Source: a virus. Taken from it: a stretch of DNA of 22,781 nt. The position numbers were made by a program, and so were the translations under genes. Positions 4,302 to 12,822 of this stretch are shown here, in pieces. The notes under the pieces were generated by a model that searched no databases, was not told the DNA's origin, and saw only the letters and a list, made by a program, of their open reading frames with translations. Position 1 is the stretch's first letter. Every line of letters starts with the position of its first letter. The stretch lies in UHGV virus genome UHGV-1752254; one strand, given 5' to 3'.

Positions 4302-4438
4302 AATCTTAACTACAATATGATTCATTTTGATGATTGTTTCATAAGGAACAGTGAAGTAAGATCTAAGAGGAGTTAAATTTTATACAGTATAATCATAATA
4401 TTGCAGCAAGGTGGTTATAATTGAAAGAATATTTAGAT

Positions 4439-5896
4439 ATGAATACATCTCATGTAAGAGTTGTTACTCATATGTGTGGGTTCCTGGTTTGGCTCTATAG
4501 TCTTTCAATGTTGCCACCAATGGTTGTAGCATTGTTTTATAAAGAAAAAAGCCTGTTCGTTTTCTTTATAACTTTCGTTATATTTTTTTGCATTGGTGGC
4601 GGAGCGTGGTATACAACTAAGAAATCTGGCATTCAATTACGTACCCGTGATGGGTTTATTATAATTGTAATGTTTTGGATTTTGTTTTCTGTTATTAGTG
4701 CATTCCCTTTATGGATTGACTCAGAACTTAATTTAACGTTCATTGATGCTCTGTTTGAAGGGGTTTCTGGAATAACAACAACAGGAGCAACTGTAATTGA
4801 TGATGTTAGTTCATTACCTCGGGCATATTTGTACTATCGGTCACAGTTAAATTTTATAGGTGGTTTAGGAGTTATTGTTCTGGCGGTTGCTGTATTGCCA
4901 TTATTGGGTATTGGTGGTGCAAAGCTTTATCAGTCAGAAATGCCGGGGCCATTTAAGGATGACAAACTCACTCCCCGCCTGGCCGATACGTCACGGACAC
5001 TGTGGATAACTTATTCTTTATTAGGTATTGCTTGTATTGTCTGTTATAGACTTGCAGGAATGCCTTTGTTTGATGCTATTTGTCACGGGATTTCCACAGT
5101 TTCGCTTGGTGGTTTCTCAACTCATAGCGAGAGTATCGGATATTTTAATAACTATTTGGTTGAGCTGGTGGCTGGTTCTTTTTCCCTGCTATCGGCTTTC
5201 AACTTCACTCTTTGGTATATTGTTATTAGCAGGAAAACGATAAAACCTTTAATCAGAGATATTGAACTTCGTTTCTTTCTGTTAATAGCCTTAGGGGTGA
5301 TCATTGTTACCTCTTTCCAGGTCTGGCATATAGGTATGTATGACTTGCATGGAAGTTTTATTCATTCGTTTTTTCTTGCCAGCTCCATGCTCACTGATAA
5401 TGGTTTAGCTACGCAGGATTATGCAAGTTGGCCCACGCACACGATAGTGTTTTTGCTGTTGTCAAGTTTCTTTGGGGGATGTATAGGTTCAACTTGTGGT
5501 GGAATTAAGTCACTTCGATTTCTTATACTTTTCAAACAAAGCAAACACGAGATAAATCAGCTTTCTCATCCCAGAGCGTTGTTGAGTGTAAATGTAGGAG
5601 GGAAGATAGTTACAGATCGTGTAATGAGGTCTGTATGGAGTTTCTTTTTTCTTTATACTCTCTTCACGGTGTTTTTTATACTGGTGTTAAATGGTATGGG
5701 ATATGATTTTCTTACATCATTTGCAACAGTGGCTGCATGTATTAATAATATGGGATTAGGTTTTGGGGCTACTGCATCGTCATTCGGAGTGCTTAATGAC
5801 ATTGCAAAATGTTTAATGTGCATAGCTATGATTCTTGGTCGCCTTGAAATTTATCCTGTTATTATATTGTTTTCAGGTTTTTTTTGGCGCTCCTAA
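4439..5896 (+). CDS. trkG: Trk-system K+ uptake protein, TrkH/TrkG family
   Basis: 485-aa polytopic membrane protein from ATG 4439, starting MNTSHVRVVTHMCGF as I recall Rac-prophage TrkG. An in-frame TTG at 4421 with an AAGGTGG RBS is an alternative start. Several glycine-rich selectivity-filter-like motifs (TTTGATV, GGLGV, SLGGFS, GSTCGG, NNMGLG). The gene and its upstream region are visibly AT-rich relative to the flanks. Confidence 0.9.
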   Translation: MNTSHVRVVTHMCGFLVWLYSLSMLPPMVVALFYKEKSLFVFFITFVIFFCIGGGAWYTTKKSGIQLRTRDGFIIIVMFWILFSVISAFPLWIDSELNLTFIDALFEGVSGITTTGATVIDDVSSLPRAYLYYRSQLNFIGGLGVIVLAVAVLPLLGIGGAKLYQSEMPGPFKDDKLTPRLADTSRTLWITYSLLGIACIVCYRLAGMPLFDAICHGISTVSLGGFSTHSESIGYFNNYLVELVAGSFSLLSAFNFTLWYIVISRKTIKPLIRDIELRFFLLIALGVIIVTSFQVWHIGMYDLHGSFIHSFFLASSMLTDNGLATQDYASWPTHTIVFLLLSSFFGGCIGSTCGGIKSLRFLILFKQSKHEINQLSHPRALLSVNVGGKIVTDRVMRSVWSFFFLYTLFTVFFILVLNGMGYDFLTSFATVAACINNMGLGFGATASSFGVLNDIAKCLMCIAMILGRLEIYPVIILFSGFFWRS

Positions 5897-5982
5897 TATA
5901 TGGCTGATTTATAATTGTGAGTTTAATATTATGTTGACTCACTCATTGATCCAATACCTAACTTTACCAGCAACCCCTCCGT

Positions 5983-6018
5983 CCCCAGTAGCACTGGCTG
6001 CTGGGGTGCGTTTTATTC
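5983..6018 (+). terminator. Possible weak terminator after trkG
   Basis: Stem CCCCAG (5983-5988) / CTGGGG (6001-6006) with a 12-nt loop, followed by TGCG and TTTTATT. The U-tract is offset, so this is weak. Confidence 0.3.
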
Positions 6019-6033
6019 ATAAAGCAAGGCTGT

Positions 6034-6825
6034 ATGAGCGAGAAATTAAAGATAGTCTATCGCCCATTACAAGAATTGTCACCGTATGCGCACAACGCCA
6101 GGACGCACAGCCCTGAGCAGGTGGCACAACTGGTAGAAAGTATTAAGCAATTCGGCTGGACTAATCCGGTGCTGATTGACGAAAAGGGCGAAATTATTGC
6201 GGGTCACGGTCGTGTTATGGCGGCTGAAATGCTCAAAATGGATTCTGTTCCGGTCATTGTTCTGTCTGGCCTGACGGATGAGCAGAAAAAGGCGTACCGC
6301 CTGGCAGATAATCGCCTGCCGATGAATGCTGGCTGGGATGAAGATCTGTTGCGGATGGAGCTGTCGGACCTAATCAATGCTGATTTTGATGTCTCCCTGA
6401 CAGGCTTCATCCCGACAGAAATTGATGAACTGTTGACGGATGTTTTGCCCGGTACAGGAAATGAGGAGGAGCCGTATACGACGAAAATTGATACGCCTGT
6501 TTATGAGCCGTCGGGCGGTAAACCGGATATCAGTGAACTGTACGACGATACGAAAACTCAGGAGCTGATCAGCCGGATACGTTCGGCGTCCCTTGAGCCT
6601 GATATTGAGAAATTCCTCCTGTGTGCGGCAGAACGTCACACGGTGTTTAATTTCAGCAGAATTGCGGACTATTACGCTCACGCCCCCTCTGAAATTCAGT
6701 GTTTTTTCGAGGAGTCGGCGCTGGTGATCATTGATTATCAGCAGGCTATTGAAAATGGATTTGTCCGGATGACGCAGCGCATGGTGGAGATCATGCATGG
6801 TGGTGAGGAGGAGGAATATGCGTGA
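6034..6825 (+). CDS. ParB-like nuclease-domain (ParB/Srx fold) protein
   Basis: 263-aa product. The N-terminal ~100 aa carry ParB N-terminal domain hallmarks (YRPLQELSPYAHNARTHSPEQV...PVLIDEKGEIIAGHGRVMAA...RLADN). Acidic, poorly characterised C-terminal half. Occupies the position of ynaK next to trkG in Rac-type prophages. Confidence 0.85.
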   Translation: MSEKLKIVYRPLQELSPYAHNARTHSPEQVAQLVESIKQFGWTNPVLIDEKGEIIAGHGRVMAAEMLKMDSVPVIVLSGLTDEQKKAYRLADNRLPMNAGWDEDLLRMELSDLINADFDVSLTGFIPTEIDELLTDVLPGTGNEEEPYTTKIDTPVYEPSGGKPDISELYDDTKTQELISRIRSASLEPDIEKFLLCAAERHTVFNFSRIADYYAHAPSEIQCFFEESALVIIDYQQAIENGFVRMTQRMVEIMHGGEEEEYA

Positions 6826-7750
6826 TGATTTTTGCGCCTTTATTCTGACTCACGGGCGACCGGACAAAGTTCTGACTTACCGGACGTTGCGTCGTGCTGG
6901 CTATACCGGGAAAATTTTTATCGTTGTTGATGATGAAGATAAGACACGGAATCAGTACATGGCTGAATTTGGTGAACAGGTGCTGGTGTTTTCCAAAGCC
7001 GATATCGCCAGTCGTTTTGACGAAGCCGATAATTTCTGTGACCGCCGCTCAATTTTTTACGCCCGTAATGCCTGTTTCGACCTGGCAAAACTGGTCGGGT
7101 GTAAATACTTCATTCAGCTCGATGATGATTATCACGAGTTCCAGTTTCGGGTGGATCGCAACTATGACCAGGCCTATTTTCCGATAAGGAAACTGGATGC
7201 GATCCTTTCTGAAATGCTGGCGTACTACGAATCAATACCTGCTCTTTCCATCGCTATGTCGCAGGGCGGGGATTTTCTTGGTGACAATGGCGGCCATGCT
7301 TCGTGGGTGAAACGCAAGGCAATGAACAGCTTTATCTGTTCGGTTGATCGACCGTTCTCATTCATGGGGCGCATTAACGAGGATGTGAATACGTACACGA
7401 ATCTCGGTCGCTGTGGTGAATTGTTTATGACGATCGGTGCTGTCCAGTTAGGGCAGAAACAGACGCAGAAAAACAGCGGCGGAATGACCGAGCTGTATCT
7501 GGATTCCGGAACCTACGTTAAAAGTTTTTACTCCGTCATGTATGCGCCGTCGTGCGTAAAAATCTCACTGATGGGTGCCAGCCATAAACGCATTCACCAT
7601 CAGGTCACCTGGAACAACGCTGCAGTAAAAATCCTTCACGAAAAATACAGGAAGAAGACACCCTGCATATCAATGGGGGTGACAAATGATTCCGTATTCG
7701 AAAGTCGAGTCTCTGGCAGCGTGCCGGATGACTGCACAACAAATCGCTGA
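6818..7750 (+). CDS. Hypothetical protein with GT-A-fold (family-2-like) glycosyltransferase signature
   Basis: ATG 6818 is preceded by GGAGGAGGAGG and overlaps the ParB-like stop by 8 nt. The track ORF starts at an upstream in-frame ATG 6797. Motifs spaced as in GT2-type enzymes: FILTHGR (res ~8-14), IVVDDED (~35-41), IQLDDDY (~99-105, DXD-like). No obvious TM segments. Function is inferred from motifs only. Confidence 0.6.
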   Translation: MRDDFCAFILTHGRPDKVLTYRTLRRAGYTGKIFIVVDDEDKTRNQYMAEFGEQVLVFSKADIASRFDEADNFCDRRSIFYARNACFDLAKLVGCKYFIQLDDDYHEFQFRVDRNYDQAYFPIRKLDAILSEMLAYYESIPALSIAMSQGGDFLGDNGGHASWVKRKAMNSFICSVDRPFSFMGRINEDVNTYTNLGRCGELFMTIGAVQLGQKQTQKNSGGMTELYLDSGTYVKSFYSVMYAPSCVKISLMGASHKRIHHQVTWNNAAVKILHEKYRKKTPCISMGVTNDSVFESRVSGSVPDDCTTNR

Positions 7751-7937
7751 CGTTCTGGATGTTGATCTGAACCGACTGAAAGAAAATCGGGAAGCAATGA
7801 CAGATTTTTATGCGGCCATCCGTAAGGGCAGAGCGAAAGGTGAAGCCGAGTTACGAGCGGCATTGTTTAAGCTTGCCAGAAAAGGGGATGCCTTTGCTCT
7901 GCGCGAACTACTCAGGGTGGATAAAAATCAGGACTAA
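7686..7937 (+). CDS. Small HTH-like DNA-binding protein upstream of terS
   Basis: 83-aa ORF. GGGGGTG RBS-like upstream of ATG 7686; an internal ATG at 7728 is an alternative start. Helix-turn-helix-like segment (TAQQIADVLDVDLNRL). Its 5' end overlaps the 3' end of the preceding gene by 65 nt. Confidence 0.5.
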   Translation: MIPYSKVESLAACRMTAQQIADVLDVDLNRLKENREAMTDFYAAIRKGRAKGEAELRAALFKLARKGDAFALRELLRVDKNQD

Positions 7938-7940
7938 CTG

Positions 7941-9035
7941 ATGAGCAGACCGGACTGGGGGGCGTTGCAGCAGGAGTATATTGCTGAATACACCCGCTCC
8001 GGTATATCTCCGGTGGCATGGTGTGAAGCAAGGGGACTGAATTACGCAACAGCCCGTCGTTACATCAAAAAAACTCCGAAAAATGCGCAGACAGAAATGT
8101 GCAAAACTGCGCAAAAAAGTGCGCAGAAAAAATCTGCGCAGACTGCACAAAAGCGGAACGAAAAATCTCAGGAAAAAAAGCCAGTATTCGATGCGGGCCT
8201 GAATGAGGGCGACGCGGAGGAATTTTCGTTCTGTCCCGATGAATTCGGCATTTCTGACCAGCAGGCTAAGTTTGCGATGCTTGTTGCTCAGGGTAAAAAG
8301 CCGACAGAGGCGTACCGACTAGCCGGTTATGAGGGGCAAGGTGCGACAGCTAACAGCAACGCCAGTCGTATGCTTAGAAATGCCAGGGTTTTTCGCGCTA
8401 TCAGCTACTTCCGCAATCAGTACCAGAAACGCTATACCGCAGACCTGGATTTACTAGTGAGTCAGTTGATGGCTATTGTCCTGGCCGACCCCAATCAGCT
8501 TGCACAATTTCGCCGTGTTAACTGCCGTTATTGCTGGGGCGAGAATCATCTCTACCAGTGGCGCGATATAGCAGAATTCGACAAGGCAGCGGCGCAGGCT
8601 TCCAGAGATGGCAAACCCGAACCGGAATATGGAGGCCTCGGCTTTGTTGATAACGCCATACCCAATCCGGACTGCCCGAAGTGCTGCGGTGAGGGAACGG
8701 GACAGCTTTATATGGCTGATACCACTCTGCTTGATGGGGATGCGCGGCAATTATATGCAGGGGCAAAATTCGGAAAATTCGGCGTTGAGATCCTGCTGGA
8801 GGATAAGGCTGCCGCCCGGCGTGAATTGTTGCGTTTGCTTTCTGCTGGCGGGGCTTTATGTGCAGATAAGCGGCTACAGGAACTGGAAATTGAACGGCGC
8901 AGAATGGAAAACCAGAAGCTGCGCAAAGAGATCGAAACGGTGGAAGATAATGAACATCCCCAGCCTGTGGCGATCAATATTAATGTGGTTGATGCCAGAG
9001 TAAGGAGTGATGAAGATGATCTCTCCGACGCTTAA
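7941..9035 (+). CDS. Terminase small subunit
   Basis: 364-aa product with an N-terminal HTH (ISPVAWCEARGLNYATARRYIKK) and a central TerS-like motif (FCPDEFGISDQQAKFAMLVAQGKKPTEAYRLAGYEG...ANSNASRMLRNARV). Directly upstream of the large terminase gene. Confidence 0.75.
   Translation: MSRPDWGALQQEYIAEYTRSGISPVAWCEARGLNYATARRYIKKTPKNAQTEMCKTAQKSAQKKSAQTAQKRNEKSQEKKPVFDAGLNEGDAEEFSFCPDEFGISDQQAKFAMLVAQGKKPTEAYRLAGYEGQGATANSNASRMLRNARVFRAISYFRNQYQKRYTADLDLLVSQLMAIVLADPNQLAQFRRVNCRYCWGENHLYQWRDIAEFDKAAAQASRDGKPEPEYGGLGFVDNAIPNPDCPKCCGEGTGQLYMADTTLLDGDARQLYAGAKFGKFGVEILLEDKAAARRELLRLLSAGGALCADKRLQELEIERRRMENQKLRKEIETVEDNEHPQPVAININVVDARVRSDEDDLSDA
8084..8149 (+). repeat. Cluster of six TGCGCA-type hexamers inside terS (candidate pac site)
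   Basis: TGCGCA at 8084, 8108, 8120 and 8135, plus variants TGTGCA at 8098 and TGCACA at 8144, spaced 9-15 bp and each in an A-rich context. Encodes the low-complexity peptide NAQTEMCKTAQKSAQKKSAQTAQK. Confidence 0.5.
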
Positions 9036-10317
9036 TGTGCCTCAGGCGCGATTTCTTTCAATGCCCCATAAATTTAAAGCCTATATTGCTGGTTTTGGCT
9101 CGGGCAAAACATGGGTTGGGTGTGGCGGCATATGCAAGGGGATTTGGGAGCATCCAGGTATAAATCAGGGATATTTTGCGCCAACGTATCCCCAAATTCG
9201 CGATATTTTTTACCCTACAGTGGAAGAAGTTGCTGCTGACTGGGGATTGAACGTAAAAATTAATGAGGGAAATAAAGAGGTTCACTTTTATTACGGACGC
9301 CAGTATCGGGGAACCACTATCTGCAGATCGATGGAGAAGCCACAAACGATCGTCGGTTTCAAAATTGGTAATGCGTTGGTGGATGAACTGGACATTTTGC
9401 CGAAGGAAAAAGCCAGAACGGCGTGGCGCAAGATAATTGCGCGTATGCGTTATAAGATTGATGGACTTCGCAACGGTATTGACGTTACAACCACGCCGGA
9501 AGGATTCAAATTTGTCTACGAGCAGTTTGTTAAAGCCGTGCGTGAAAAAACAGAGCTGGCCTCACTGTATGGTCTGGTGCAGGCATCTACTTTCGATAAT
9601 GAAAAGAACCTGCCAGCAGATTACATTCCTTCGCTTCTTGAGTCATACCCTCCAGAGCTGATTAAAGCCTATCTTCGAGGACAGTTTACTAACCTGACAA
9701 GTGGTACTGTTTACCATCAGTTTGACCGGAAACTGAATAATTGCGAAGAAGTGGAGCAGCCAGGGGAGCCGATTTATATTGGGATGGATTTTAACGTTGG
9801 AAAGATGGCGGGGGTCGTCCATGTACTGCGTTTGGGGCTTCCATGTGCGGTAACTGAAATCATCAATGCCTACGATACACCGGATATGATCCGCATCATT
9901 AAAGAACGCTTCTGGCTGTATGACGGGAATGATTACCGGAAAGTGAGGGAGATTTATATTTATCCAGATGCTTCCGGAGATTCCAGAAAATCAAGTAACG
10001 CAAGTACGACGGATATAGCCCAGCTTAAGCAGGCTGGTTTTAACGTTGTGGTGAACAGCTCGAACCCGCCAGTAAAAGATCGCGTTAACTCAATGAATGC
10101 AATGTTCTGCAATGCCAATGGCGAACGTCGCTATAAAGTTAATGTGAAGCGTTGTCCGGTATATGCCGAATCTCTGGAGCAACAGGTCTGGGATGATAAG
10201 GGGGAGCCTGATAAAAAATCTGGCAATGATCACCCGAATGATGCCGGAGGTTATTTCATCGTTAAGCAATTCCCTATTGTCAAACCGACCGGAAGAGTCA
10301 CATCACTTCGGATTTAA
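9016..10317 (+). CDS. Terminase large subunit
   Basis: Walker A motif GFGSGKT near the N-terminus and terminase-like ATPase/nuclease organisation. TAAGGAG RBS 8 nt upstream of ATG 9016. The track ORF starts at an in-frame GTG at 9007, too close to the RBS. Confidence 0.9.
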   Translation: MISPTLNVPQARFLSMPHKFKAYIAGFGSGKTWVGCGGICKGIWEHPGINQGYFAPTYPQIRDIFYPTVEEVAADWGLNVKINEGNKEVHFYYGRQYRGTTICRSMEKPQTIVGFKIGNALVDELDILPKEKARTAWRKIIARMRYKIDGLRNGIDVTTTPEGFKFVYEQFVKAVREKTELASLYGLVQASTFDNEKNLPADYIPSLLESYPPELIKAYLRGQFTNLTSGTVYHQFDRKLNNCEEVEQPGEPIYIGMDFNVGKMAGVVHVLRLGLPCAVTEIINAYDTPDMIRIIKERFWLYDGNDYRKVREIYIYPDASGDSRKSSNASTTDIAQLKQAGFNVVVNSSNPPVKDRVNSMNAMFCNANGERRYKVNVKRCPVYAESLEQQVWDDKGEPDKKSGNDHPNDAGGYFIVKQFPIVKPTGRVTSLRI

Positions 10318-10319
10318 TT

Positions 10320-11726
10320 ATGGCTGATATATCAACACCCAACCTCGACTATAACGATATGCTGGAGGCGTGGGATATTAACGACGCACTGATGGGCGGT
10401 ACGCTTGAAATGCGCAGGCAGGGGGAAAATTATCTCCCAAAATGGCCTAACGAAGATGAAGACGCTTATAAAAAACGCCTGTCTGTGGCTACGCTACTTC
10501 CTGTGTATGAAGAAAGCATCAAGCAAAATATTGGGCGCATATTTGCAGAGCCGACAGTATTGAGTGAGGAAACGCCGGCAAAAATCAGGGAATATGCAGA
10601 AAATATCGACATGGAGGGAAGCCGACTGGATGTGTGGGCGCAGCAATTTTTCAGCCTCGCATTTCAGTATGGTGTGGCACATGCGCTGGTGGACTATCCA
10701 CGAACGGATATGAAAGAGATTCGGACAAAAGCCGATGAAAACGCGGCCGGTAGTCGTCCGTACGTTACGATGCTGAATCCACGCCAGGTTATTGGATGGA
10801 AATCGAAAGTTGAAAAAGGGAAAGTTGTTCTCACTGATTTGCGTATAAAAGAGGTCATCATTATTGATGGTGATGATTTCGGGCAGAAGAAGGTGGAGCA
10901 GATCCGCCATATTATGCCCCGTCGAGTTGAAATTTATCGACGTAGCGAAGGCACTAATGGCGAATCTGTCTGGACGCTTCATGAGTCATGGAATACCAGC
11001 CGTGATGATATTCCTCTGGTAACACTGTACACGAAGAAAACAGGATTTATGCGTGGTACACCGCCATTGCTTAATCTTGGCTTGCTGAATATCAAGCACT
11101 GGCAAAGCCAGAGCGAGCAGGACAATATTCTTCATGTTGCCCGCGTTCCATTGCTGGTGGCCTACGGGCTGGACAGGAATGAAGAACTGACGGTTGGTGC
11201 ATCCACCGCTACGATTTTTGAGGACAGAACAAAAAATGGCCTCGAATATGTTGAACATAGTGGCGCAGCGATAGAATCTGGCGAAACATCACTTGAGAAG
11301 CTGGAAAATCAGATGCGTCATGCCGGCGCTAAACTTCTGCGTGCTGAAAATACATCCACCAAATCTGTTGATCAGACTAATGAAGAGCGAATGCAGGAAA
11401 ACTCGCCGCTTTATAGAATGGCGAACTCCCTCGAAGATGCCCTCGATAATATTCTCCAGATAATGGCGGAATGGATCGGAGAGAGTTGCGGTGGCAATGT
11501 GGATGTGCGCACTGAACTGGATGTATCTGCCCAGGTGTTTGACTCATCCTCCGCGCTGGCTGTTCAGTCATTGCGTCAGGGCGGTGATATACGTCAGATT
11601 GATGCGATTCGGGTGTTGCAGGCGTTGAAATTTATCGATCAGGATTCCCGTCCAGAGGAAGTGATCGATGAATTAAAAAATCAGAGTGTAATGCTGATGG
11701 AAATCAATGATGCAAACCGTGAATGA
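10320..11726 (+). CDS. Portal protein
   Basis: 468-aa ORF immediately after TerL (3-nt gap), with acidic portal-like composition. Canonical position in a terminase-portal-head module. Confidence 0.8.
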   Translation: MADISTPNLDYNDMLEAWDINDALMGGTLEMRRQGENYLPKWPNEDEDAYKKRLSVATLLPVYEESIKQNIGRIFAEPTVLSEETPAKIREYAENIDMEGSRLDVWAQQFFSLAFQYGVAHALVDYPRTDMKEIRTKADENAAGSRPYVTMLNPRQVIGWKSKVEKGKVVLTDLRIKEVIIIDGDDFGQKKVEQIRHIMPRRVEIYRRSEGTNGESVWTLHESWNTSRDDIPLVTLYTKKTGFMRGTPPLLNLGLLNIKHWQSQSEQDNILHVARVPLLVAYGLDRNEELTVGASTATIFEDRTKNGLEYVEHSGAAIESGETSLEKLENQMRHAGAKLLRAENTSTKSVDQTNEERMQENSPLYRMANSLEDALDNILQIMAEWIGESCGGNVDVRTELDVSAQVFDSSSALAVQSLRQGGDIRQIDAIRVLQALKFIDQDSRPEEVIDELKNQSVMLMEINDANRE

Positions 11727-12822
11727 ACGGCTGCGTGATGAATCAATTGCTCATGCAGTCTGGATATCCCGCTATAGCACTGGCGTGGCTGCCAGAATGG
11801 TGAAAATACTGAATGACAGCGATGCGGAACTTACTGCTCGCCTGCTGATAGCACTGGACAGCCTCGATCCAGGTAGTTTTACCGTTAAGCGCCTGGAGTC
11901 ACTTCTGGCGAGCGTCAGAGAGGTTAACCGCACTGCTATTAACAGCATGTTTACCAGTCTCTACGGAGAGCTGAACGAGCTGGCAATTTATGAGGCTGGT
12001 TATCAGTTAAGTCTGTTTGATTCTATGCTACCTGATTTTGTTGCTGATGTTCACCCTCTGGTTGGTATCTCTCCTGATGCACTTTATGCCGCTGCAATGG
12101 CGCGACCATTTCAGGGACGACTGCTCAGTGAGTGGGCCTCAGATCTTGAGGCGGATCGGCTCAGACGCATAACAAATACAGTGCGTCAGGGTTTTTTGCT
12201 GGGGGATACCAATGAGCAGATCGCAAGAAAAATTCGGGGACATGTCAGTAAGGGATTTCAGGATGGTGCATTGCAGATGAGCCGGGCTAATGCGGCCAGC
12301 ATTGCAAAAACAGCGGTTGGACATCTTGCTGCTACTGCCCGTGAGAGTTTTGCCAGCGCGAATAATGATTTGATTAAGGGTAAGCAATGGTTATCAACGC
12401 TTGATAATCGTACTACGCCACAATGTCGAATCAGGGATCGCCTCAAATATACGCTGAATAATAAACCTGTAGGTCACAGCGTGCCTTATTTGCAGGGGCC
12501 GGGAAAAATTCATTTCTGCTGCCGCTCAACGGAAACGTTCATTCTGAAATCAGCGAAGGAACTGGGTATTGATGTTCGCGATATTTCCCCGGCTGAGCGG
12601 GCCAGCATGGATGGCGTGGTGGCCGGAGATACAACCTACAGGGAATGGTTTTTGCGTCAGCCTTACACCAGACAAAAACAGATTGTGGGGGAAACCCGAG
12701 CAAAGCTGATTCGGGATGGTGGTATGTCGCCAGATGAATTTTACACCGATAAAGGCGAATGGCTGACGCTGAAGCAGCTCCGTGAGCGTGATGCACAGGT
12801 ATTCAGAAAAGCAGGGATTTAA
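11707..12822 (+). CDS. Head morphogenesis protein (Mu F-like / SPP1 gp7-like minor head protein)
   Basis: 371-aa ORF overlapping the portal 3' end by 20 nt. Position after the portal gene and size fit this family. Confidence 0.7.
   Translation: MMQTVNERLRDESIAHAVWISRYSTGVAARMVKILNDSDAELTARLLIALDSLDPGSFTVKRLESLLASVREVNRTAINSMFTSLYGELNELAIYEAGYQLSLFDSMLPDFVADVHPLVGISPDALYAAAMARPFQGRLLSEWASDLEADRLRRITNTVRQGFLLGDTNEQIARKIRGHVSKGFQDGALQMSRANAASIAKTAVGHLAATARESFASANNDLIKGKQWLSTLDNRTTPQCRIRDRLKYTLNNKPVGHSVPYLQGPGKIHFCCRSTETFILKSAKELGIDVRDISPAERASMDGVVAGDTTYREWFLRQPYTRQKQIVGETRAKLIRDGGMSPDEFYTDKGEWLTLKQLRERDAQVFRKAGI

Follow-up and report, generated by a model that had tools for sequence, protein, structure and literature searches.

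The window analyzed here is a 22,781-nucleotide (nt) stretch of the virus genome UHGV-1752254, and our subject is a short array of hexanucleotides at positions 8084-8149, proposed in an original prediction as a candidate pac site inside the gene terS. This gene (7941..9035, plus strand) encodes a small terminase subunit, TerS, of 364 amino acids (aa), which matches Pfam Terminase_2 (PF03592) over aa 122-321 (35.1 bits against a cut-off of 26.1) and phrog_51 over its full length (2e-76). An AlphaFold2 prediction for TerS aa 1-60, based on an alignment of 58 sequences, places helices at residues 6-20, 24-31, and 35-41, with a predicted local distance difference test score (pLDDT) of 84-88 in the core and a disordered tail after it. 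Judged by this model, the domain preceding the array is helix-turn-helix (HTH)-like, and TerS would consist of an N-terminal HTH, a Lys-rich linker of ~55 residues, and a Terminase_2 core. The three-helix HTH (aa 1-44, 7941..8072, plus strand), whose presumed recognition helix is YATARRY, is the proposed reader of the hexamers. The linker (aa 45-98, 8073..8235, plus strand) is predicted to be disordered, the pLDDT being low after aa 45, and its peptide is rich in Ala, Gln, and Lys. It forms the variable half of what appears to be a swappable HTH-plus-site module and holds the array in the DNA of its first part, starting 12 nt past the last HTH codon (codon 44).

The array comprises four exact copies of TGCGCA and two copies that differ from it at one position, and spans codons 48-70 of terS. 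All six lie where they had originally been placed, with A-rich flanks and a spacing of 9-15 base pairs (bp), the successive start-to-start distances being 14, 10, 12, 15, and 9 bp; no strand is assigned to any of them. The first (8084..8089, TGCGCA) reads AAT-GCG-CAG, whereas the second (8098..8103, TGTGCA) is degenerate and lies in another frame (A-TG-TGC-A). The third, fourth, and fifth (8108..8113, 8120..8125, and 8135..8140) are exact, and the sixth (8144..8149, TGCACA) is again a degenerate copy. All except the copy at 8098 are read as xxT-GCG/GCA-CAx, giving Ala-Gln. Tandem Repeats Finder describes the region as a 36-bp unit repeated 2.1 times. In the window as a whole, TGCGCA occurs 11 times against 9.5 expected, and the density of the other seven sites would predict ~0.02 per 57 bp; the four exact copies found within 57 bp of the array are therefore a strong local excess. 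In a synonymous null model, in which the peptide of codons 45-73 was kept fixed and the codons were redrawn according to the window's own usage in 200,000 trials, four or more exact TGCGCA arose with P = 2e-4, and six or more hexamers within one mismatch with P = 0.027. The AQ-rich peptide alone does not account for the excess of hexamers, and the constraint is at the DNA level.

The HTH-plus-linker module (7941-8240) is present in 883 of 5,426 complete Escherichia coli genomes (16%), where the gene carries the annotation terminase small subunit, and close relatives were compared as a set of 43 unique sequences of the window's lineage, to which the following numbers refer. Six exact TGCGCA are the form common to most sequence variants, and the two degenerate hexamers of the window are each exact in most relatives. 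By this comparison the window array looks like a slightly decayed version, with four of its six hexamers perfect. In the loci sampled, no other single allele is as frequent as that of the window (39 loci). The first hexamer is unchanged in 43 of 43 sequences, the fourth is TGCGCG in one sub-lineage, and the copy number ranges from 4 to 7 through gain and loss of whole units. Hexamers show 0.17 extra alleles per column and spacers 0.53, compared to 0.07, 0.16, and 0.48 at codon positions 1, 2, and 3 of the HTH and 0.78, 0.89, and 1.19 at those of the linker downstream of the array. Hence, the hexamers are conserved about as well as the amino-acid-changing positions of the HTH, the spacers drift roughly as fast as synonymous sites, and there is essentially no constraint on the peptide surrounding the array. 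Variable columns are likewise rarer in the hexamers (6/36) than in the spacers (25/51; Fisher P = 0.003) or the downstream linker (56/81; Fisher P = 2e-7). The second hexamer illustrates the point, as it is read in relatives as [A/C/G/T]TG-CGC-A, which encodes Met, Leu, or Val followed by Arg: the hexamer stays, while the preceding base and amino acid vary. Purifying selection thus appears to act on the hexamers as DNA. The suggestion that DNA and protein are both constrained held up for the DNA, but not for the protein, as the surrounding linker peptide evolves faster than synonymous sites; the constraint is essentially on the DNA.

The same hexamer recurs in distant relatives that share the window's HTH (class A, ...[ST]ARRY[IL]K). 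In all 17 diverged clusters with this HTH, which include prophages of Serratia, Buttiauxella, and Superficieibacter (Enterobacteriaceae) as well as IMG/VR contigs, the 210 nt after the HTH contain 4-8 exact TGCGCA, where ~0.05 would be expected by chance. Aeromonas phage phiARM81mr has seven copies and Vibrio phage douglas 12A4 has five. The linkers of these relatives are unalignable, and the hexamers vary in number, spacing, and frame: of 89 hexamers in the 17 clusters, 75 are read as xxT-GCG-CAx, 13 as xTG-CGC-Axx, and one as TGC-GCA, and 58 of 72 adjacent pairs are spaced 7-15 bp apart. Codon choice is skewed accordingly. Ala is encoded by GCG in 72 of 77 Ala-Gln pairs of the linkers, compared to 22 of 45 elsewhere in the same genes, and the Ala codon is preceded by T in 76 of 77 pairs, compared to 18 of 45. 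The extended consensus is aaaC-TGCGCA-Ra, and at least four TerS cores, mutually dissimilar by BLAST, are found linked to the HTH-plus-TGCGCA module. Conservation in relatives at the nucleotide level, which had been named as a check on the prediction, is thus observed despite differences in peptide, frame, copy number, and the remainder of TerS. In the reciprocal test, IMG/VR was scanned for three closely spaced TGCGCA. The first 80 loci listed contained 81 arrays. For 60 of these, a class-A HTH coding sequence is found no more than 450 nt away, and at least one further array (L262) follows another HTH of a terS-like gene.

Where the HTH differs, so does the motif. Class A, represented by the window and by loci L005-L007, L177, and L179, has TGCGCA in 4-8 copies, and a variant with an R-to-K change in the recognition helix (TAKRYIK[VI]), found in L174 and in Yersinia phage vB_YenM_21.09 (L178), has TGCGAA/TTCGCA. 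These two examples belong to two different core families. In an alignment of short HTH proteins described below, the AKRY variants are all followed by Ala-Asn-Ser or the near-variant Ala-Lys-Ser, Ala-Asn-Ser being the reading of GCGAATTCG in L174 and L178. Five other HTH classes are found on the window's core family, each with its own motif, mostly as direct and then inverted copies: GGGGCA followed by TGCCCC (L008, L181, and L192), four or five copies of GTACGCA followed by TGCGTAC (L185-L190 and L197), CCGACC followed by GGTCGG (L202 and L240, with four of each in L202), GGTTCGC followed by GCGAACC (L206 and L207), and, in pPE4 (L002), GTTTCCAC followed by GTGGAAAC. Peptide repetition cannot account for the inverted copies, as the peptides that they encode are unrelated. 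One core family carries three different hexamers, each following its HTH. An unsupervised test on ~3-kb loci, which asked where the most repeated 6-mer lies, pointed to the 200 nt after the HTH in 30 of 37 clusters, with a motif that was class-specific. A natural swap is provided by pPE4, in which the HTH, linker, and repeat motif all differ from those of the window, yet terS from 8236 on is 93% identical. Taken across these loci, the motif appears to follow the HTH and not the TerS core.

Two side observations concern the loci just described. The record of pPE4 (PP818812) is entitled 'Actinobacillus phage vB_Apl-pPE4', and 93% DNA identity to an E. coli prophage core is surprising for a phage of Actinobacillus pleuropneumoniae; it points to either a very recent exchange or a doubtful host assignment. 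In the IMG/VR loci L202 (~1325-1400), L240, L208, and L192, the arrays form near-symmetric blocks of N direct and then N inverted copies (for example, CCGACC x4 and GGTCGG x4), and the corresponding peptide, PTKPTKPTK...GRSGGRS, is visibly dictated by the DNA. By analogy with lambda cosB or P1 pac, this symmetry suggests two TerS-bound arms facing each other.

Because the hexamers are conserved as DNA rather than as protein, and change with the DNA-binding domain, they are most likely the site by which the packaging enzyme recognizes its genome. We consider that the array is probably the DNA site recognized by the phage's small terminase to start headful packaging, that is, a pac recognition element of the P1 type. 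The original proposal of a candidate pac site inside terS is to this extent supported by strong comparative evidence, namely DNA-level conservation, co-variation with the HTH, and the P1-like layout. TerS binding, its cooperativity, cleavage, where the cut falls, and which way packaging runs are inferred. In TerS, a long flexible linker would join the HTH to an oligomeric core, and the linker-coding DNA would present 4-8 copies of the HTH target TGCGCA about one helical turn apart (7-15 bp). Several HTHs of one TerS oligomer could then bind neighboring hexamers cooperatively and hold the DNA against the ring, whereupon TerL (9007-10317) would be recruited, the first cut made nearby, and the headful series begun. 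The DNA can carry such a signal because the linker peptide is almost free of constraint, and the reader and its site could move as one recombination cassette because they are adjacent.

The best-characterized counterpart is the pac site of phage P1, a 161-bp segment inside pacA with seven TGATCA/G hexamers in two clusters around a site for integration host factor (IHF) and the cut (PMC10028697). Synonymous recoding of these hexamers reduces packaging ~9-fold, and they are regulated by Dam (PMC10028697). Numbered along pacA in the P1 record, the hexamers begin at nt 194 and continue with the second cluster at nt 324-380, the annotated cuts (nt 275-285) falling in between. The analogy to P1 that accompanied the original prediction proved apt also in position: in both cases, several copies of one palindrome-type TG-NN-CA hexanucleotide, spaced 7-15 bp apart, lie inside the small-terminase gene just downstream of the segment encoding an N-terminal HTH. 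In P1, this HTH ends near codon 41, and the hexamers start 70 nt after the part of pacA encoding it. The two hexamers, TG-AT-CA and TG-CG-CA, differ only in the central dinucleotide, and the motif NTARRY is common to the HTHs of PacA and of the window; the N-terminus of PacA (...EFNLNPNTARRYLRAF) aligns collinearly with the window HTH. In contrast to the P1 hexamer, TGCGCA contains no GATC, and would therefore not be under Dam control. Some class-A relatives are bipartite like P1, with 4+2 hexamers in L175 (117-bp gap), 4+1 in L223 (99-bp gap), and 2+3 in L179 (66-bp gap). The layout of the window is thus that of P1, homology of the reader to PacA being marginal, and the array would be a variant of the P1-type pac site rather than a strict member.

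Several points weigh against recognition for packaging. Two of the six window hexamers are degenerate. The window has a single cluster of six, unlike the 4+3 arrangement flanking the IHF site and cut in P1; the next TGCGCA after the array is at 8920, and no IHF consensus was found near the array, the sole match in the window being at 12363. Homology between the HTH and PacA is weak: hhalign against PacA aa 1-78 gives E = 6.9e-5 and a probability of 63%, and an HMMER search with the class-A HTH against P1 PacA gave no match. The TerS core likewise has no BLAST similarity to that of P1 PacA. With the best-studied pac-type TerS proteins (SF6, SPP1, P22, and Sf6), it proved impossible to demonstrate sequence-specific binding to repeats in vitro (PMC4737164, PMC9611059). 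The co-variation of HTH and linker could in part reflect joint inheritance of neighbors rather than recognition. Joint inheritance alone, however, is countered by the finding that the exact motif persists in relatives whose HTH is ~50-60% identical and whose linker is unalignable, and by the nested R-to-K switch, which is paired with a change from TGCGCA to TGCGAA. Finally, the comparative results (DNA constraint, co-variation with the HTH, and the position inside terS) fit an operator equally well and cannot separate it from a packaging site.

This last point is the basis of the alternative that survives best, namely that the hexamers are sites at which the TerS HTH acts in autoregulation, as a roadblock or repressor of terS-terL expression, with pac proper lying elsewhere. 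There is a precedent in SPP1, where the pac region spans the terS promoters and a role in viral gene regulation has also been proposed by the authors (PMC4737164). However, the established role of DNA binding by TerS is the recognition of pac or cos, the same layout is an experimentally proven pac site in P1, and the ~3-kb loci showed no other repeat array that might be a candidate. We therefore regard autoregulation in place of packaging as unlikely, while the two roles are not mutually exclusive.

Considerably less probable is that the hexamers are targets of another factor, such as a host protein or a restriction or methylation enzyme. TGCGCA is palindromic, contains GCGC, and is the recognition site of FspI, and genes for a ParB-like protein and a glycosyltransferase lie just upstream. 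Moreover, the P1 hexamers are regulated by Dam (PMC10028697), and the array of phage 933W also contains GATC. Against this, the rest of the window shows neither avoidance nor enrichment of TGCGCA, several of the class-specific motifs are non-palindromic, no methyltransferase domain was detected in the neighboring proteins scanned (4421-12822), and in hosts as different as Vibrio and Escherichia the motif goes with the HTH of TerS.

We attach a similarly small probability to the possibility that translation or stability of the terS transcript is controlled by a secondary structure of RNA (or single-stranded DNA) into which the self-complementary hexamers fold. The RNA of 8070-8165 is predicted to fold with -29.8 kcal/mol, a z-score of -5.4 relative to shuffled sequences, and the direct and inverted copies of other classes could pair, but a low folding energy is automatic for repeated palindromes. 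The hexamer sequence is invariant across lineages, with no co-variation between arms; copy numbers are often odd (5, 7), some neighbors are 7 bp apart start to start and thus too close for a hairpin, and in the GTACGCA class four or five direct copies are typically accompanied by a single inverted copy. Such a structure would also leave the change of motif with HTH class unexplained. Least probable of all is that the array is a mere by-product, generated by replication slippage, of a low-complexity AQK peptide and has no function as DNA: the 36-bp unit, the change in copy number by whole units, and the Ala/Gln/Lys-rich linker would fit, but a chance or peptide-driven repeat is effectively refuted by the synonymous null, the use of three reading frames, the preference for GCG and a preceding T in linker Ala-Gln pairs, the threefold higher conservation of hexamer columns than of spacers in an unconstrained linker peptide, and the unrelated peptides encoded by the inverted copies of other classes.

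Other systems place the proposed recognition of the array for packaging in context. The HTH of TerS from phage 933W (NP_049510) is clearly homologous to that of the window (HMMER E = 2.6e-12, 51% identity) and is likewise followed by four hexamers in the same position, here with an exact 12-bp period. This array (L176 1037-1083, corresponding to NC_000924 ~28911-28957) lies inside terS right after the HTH and encodes the peptide KIDHEIDHKTDHEIDHD. It differs from the window in that its hexamer, [CT]GATCA, is of the P1 type and a Dam site, and in its core, which is of another family. Two relic forms, TGTGCA and TGCGCA, are found 60-90 bp beyond the array. Nothing on a mapped 933W pac site was found in the searchable literature, where the array is apparently undescribed; its GATC hexamers suggest a Dam-sensitive pac site in Shiga toxin (Stx) phages.

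SPP1 and SF6 share with the window an N-terminal HTH on an oligomeric TerS of the Terminase_2 family (G1P). There, the direct repeats of pac (the pacL and pacR boxes) overlap the start of terS, and the DNA has been proposed to wrap around a ring of HTHs, but the isolated DNA-binding domain has almost no sequence specificity and the repeats are irrelevant to its binding (PMC4737164). Whereas that HTH is nearly non-specific, the hexamer described here is exact and conserved and varies together with the HTH, a pattern that speaks for base-specific readout. A further parallel is lambda cosB, where several R-sites for the winged HTH of gpNu1 are present beside the cut site in both direct and inverted orientation. 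In contrast to a pac element, however, cosB belongs to a cos system with exact ends, and its sites are intergenic, ~16 bp long, assisted by IHF, and bound by an HTH of a different fold class. The same architectural logic is also seen in lambdoid gene O, whose N-terminal DNA-binding domain reads the ori iterons in its own linker-coding DNA, the whole being exchanged as one specificity cassette, but these iterons serve replication initiation, and the proteins and sites are unrelated to those considered here. As evidence for packaging starts, we also considered LF82 phage Gally, for which pac has been mapped by virome coverage (PMC9928086), but rejected it because its TerS is unrelated and Sf6-like. 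The GenBank records of related phages do not start at the array.

The genes downstream of terS are those of a packaging and head module. They comprise terL (9007..10317, plus strand), which encodes a large terminase subunit matching Pfam Terminase_6N (3.7e-33) and Terminase_6C (4e-11), the portal gene after it (10320-11726), and a gene for a Mu-F-like head protein after that (11707-12822). The match of TerL to the PBSX family is weak and below its cut-off, and our search found no solved homologue. The gene order terS-terL-portal-MuF is typical of headful packagers, while the type of TerL alone is no proof of the packaging strategy. Within TerS itself, the Terminase_2 core contains an insertion of ~90 residues with two CxxC pairs (NCRYCWGE ... 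CPKCxGEG) that are invariant in all homologues aligned. In the window these cysteines are C195 and C198 (8523-8534) and C245 and C248 (8673-8684), and the insertion looks like a zinc ribbon, which would be unusual for a small terminase.

Immediately upstream of terS, an open reading frame (ORF) of 83 aa (7686-7937, plus strand) overlaps the end of the glycosyltransferase gene and stops 3 nt before terS. It is conserved (45-64% aa identity) directly upstream of terS across loci of several HTH classes with different motifs, and it matches only the middle (positions 145-218) of the 319-aa PHROG 'small terminase' family phrog_309. We considered its product as an alternative reader of the array and rejected it, since it does not co-vary with the motif; it may be an unrecognized accessory packaging protein. 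Between the lysis genes and terS lie genes for a protein with a ParB N-terminal domain (6034-6825, plus strand) and a TET-associated glycosyltransferase (TAGT; 6797-7750, plus strand; PF20691 at 8e-35). Together (6034-7750) they may form a DNA-modification or anti-defense module; neither a TET nor a JBP enzyme was detected in the neighboring proteins scanned. A cargo gene for a TrkH/TrkG-type potassium transporter (4421-5896, plus strand; Pfam 5e-145) is located between the lysis cassette and the packaging genes, and we take it to be comparable to trkG of the Rac prophage.

Some relatives have lost or disrupted part of the module. In phage Rac-SA53 (L001, KU052037, 1412-2440), the HTH part of terS is deleted and the remainder is fused to a fragment of gene O, in a coding sequence annotated as 'gpOterS; fusion of two genes by deletion'. 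The leftover array reads TGCGCA, TGCGCA, TTCGCA, TGCGCT, TGCCCA; its decay, in this single case, would fit relaxed selection after loss of the reader. The linker DNA also has runs of A7-A9 (8066-8072 and 8174-8180 in the window; also in relatives L144 and L148). A profile search with the 44-aa HTH returned 132 short proteins (38-77 aa among the matches listed; P0121-P0240) in which terS is truncated or frame-shifted within A runs, and which are useful as an alignment for folding, not for diversity. The reading frame of several full-length homologues is shifted across the array and restored further on. Such frameshifts could be sequencing errors, prophage decay, or slippage that yields a free HTH domain.

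The more interesting lead is that class-specific arrays are found in the linker-coding DNA of many HTH-TerS genes. It invites a general rule, which we advance tentatively and rate at slightly less than an even chance: small terminases with an N-terminal HTH, a large superfamily, would have as their pac recognition array the DNA that codes for the disordered linker, with a motif of 6-8 bp specific to each HTH class and present in 4-8 copies, often direct and then inverted, and the HTH and array together would be a portable packaging-specificity cassette that recombines onto different TerS cores. We found no description of such a rule in the searchable literature. If it is true, pac recognition sites could be read directly from the sequence for thousands of prophages, the window cassette alone accounting for 16% of complete E. 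coli genomes, and a P1-like, Dam-sensitive [CT]GATCA pac array would be predicted in 933W-type Shiga-toxin phages.

How pac-type TerS proteins recognize their own DNA is still described as unclear and controversial (PMC9611059), and the SF6, SPP1, and P22 models show weak, nearly sequence-independent binding in vitro (PMC4737164). The class-A family gives the opposite signal, as an exact hexamer is maintained across Vibrio, Aeromonas, and enterobacterial phages and changes with the recognition helix; under the general rule, it would offer naturally matched pairs of HTH and site for settling how such proteins read DNA. The element could also serve to build or disable packaging signals in phagemid delivery, as has been done for P1 (PMC10028697). 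A pac element sets the start of the headful series, and hence of any lateral transduction of neighboring host DNA, and the cassette described here is present in about one sixth of complete E. coli genomes, with a related array of the 933W type in Shiga-toxin phages.

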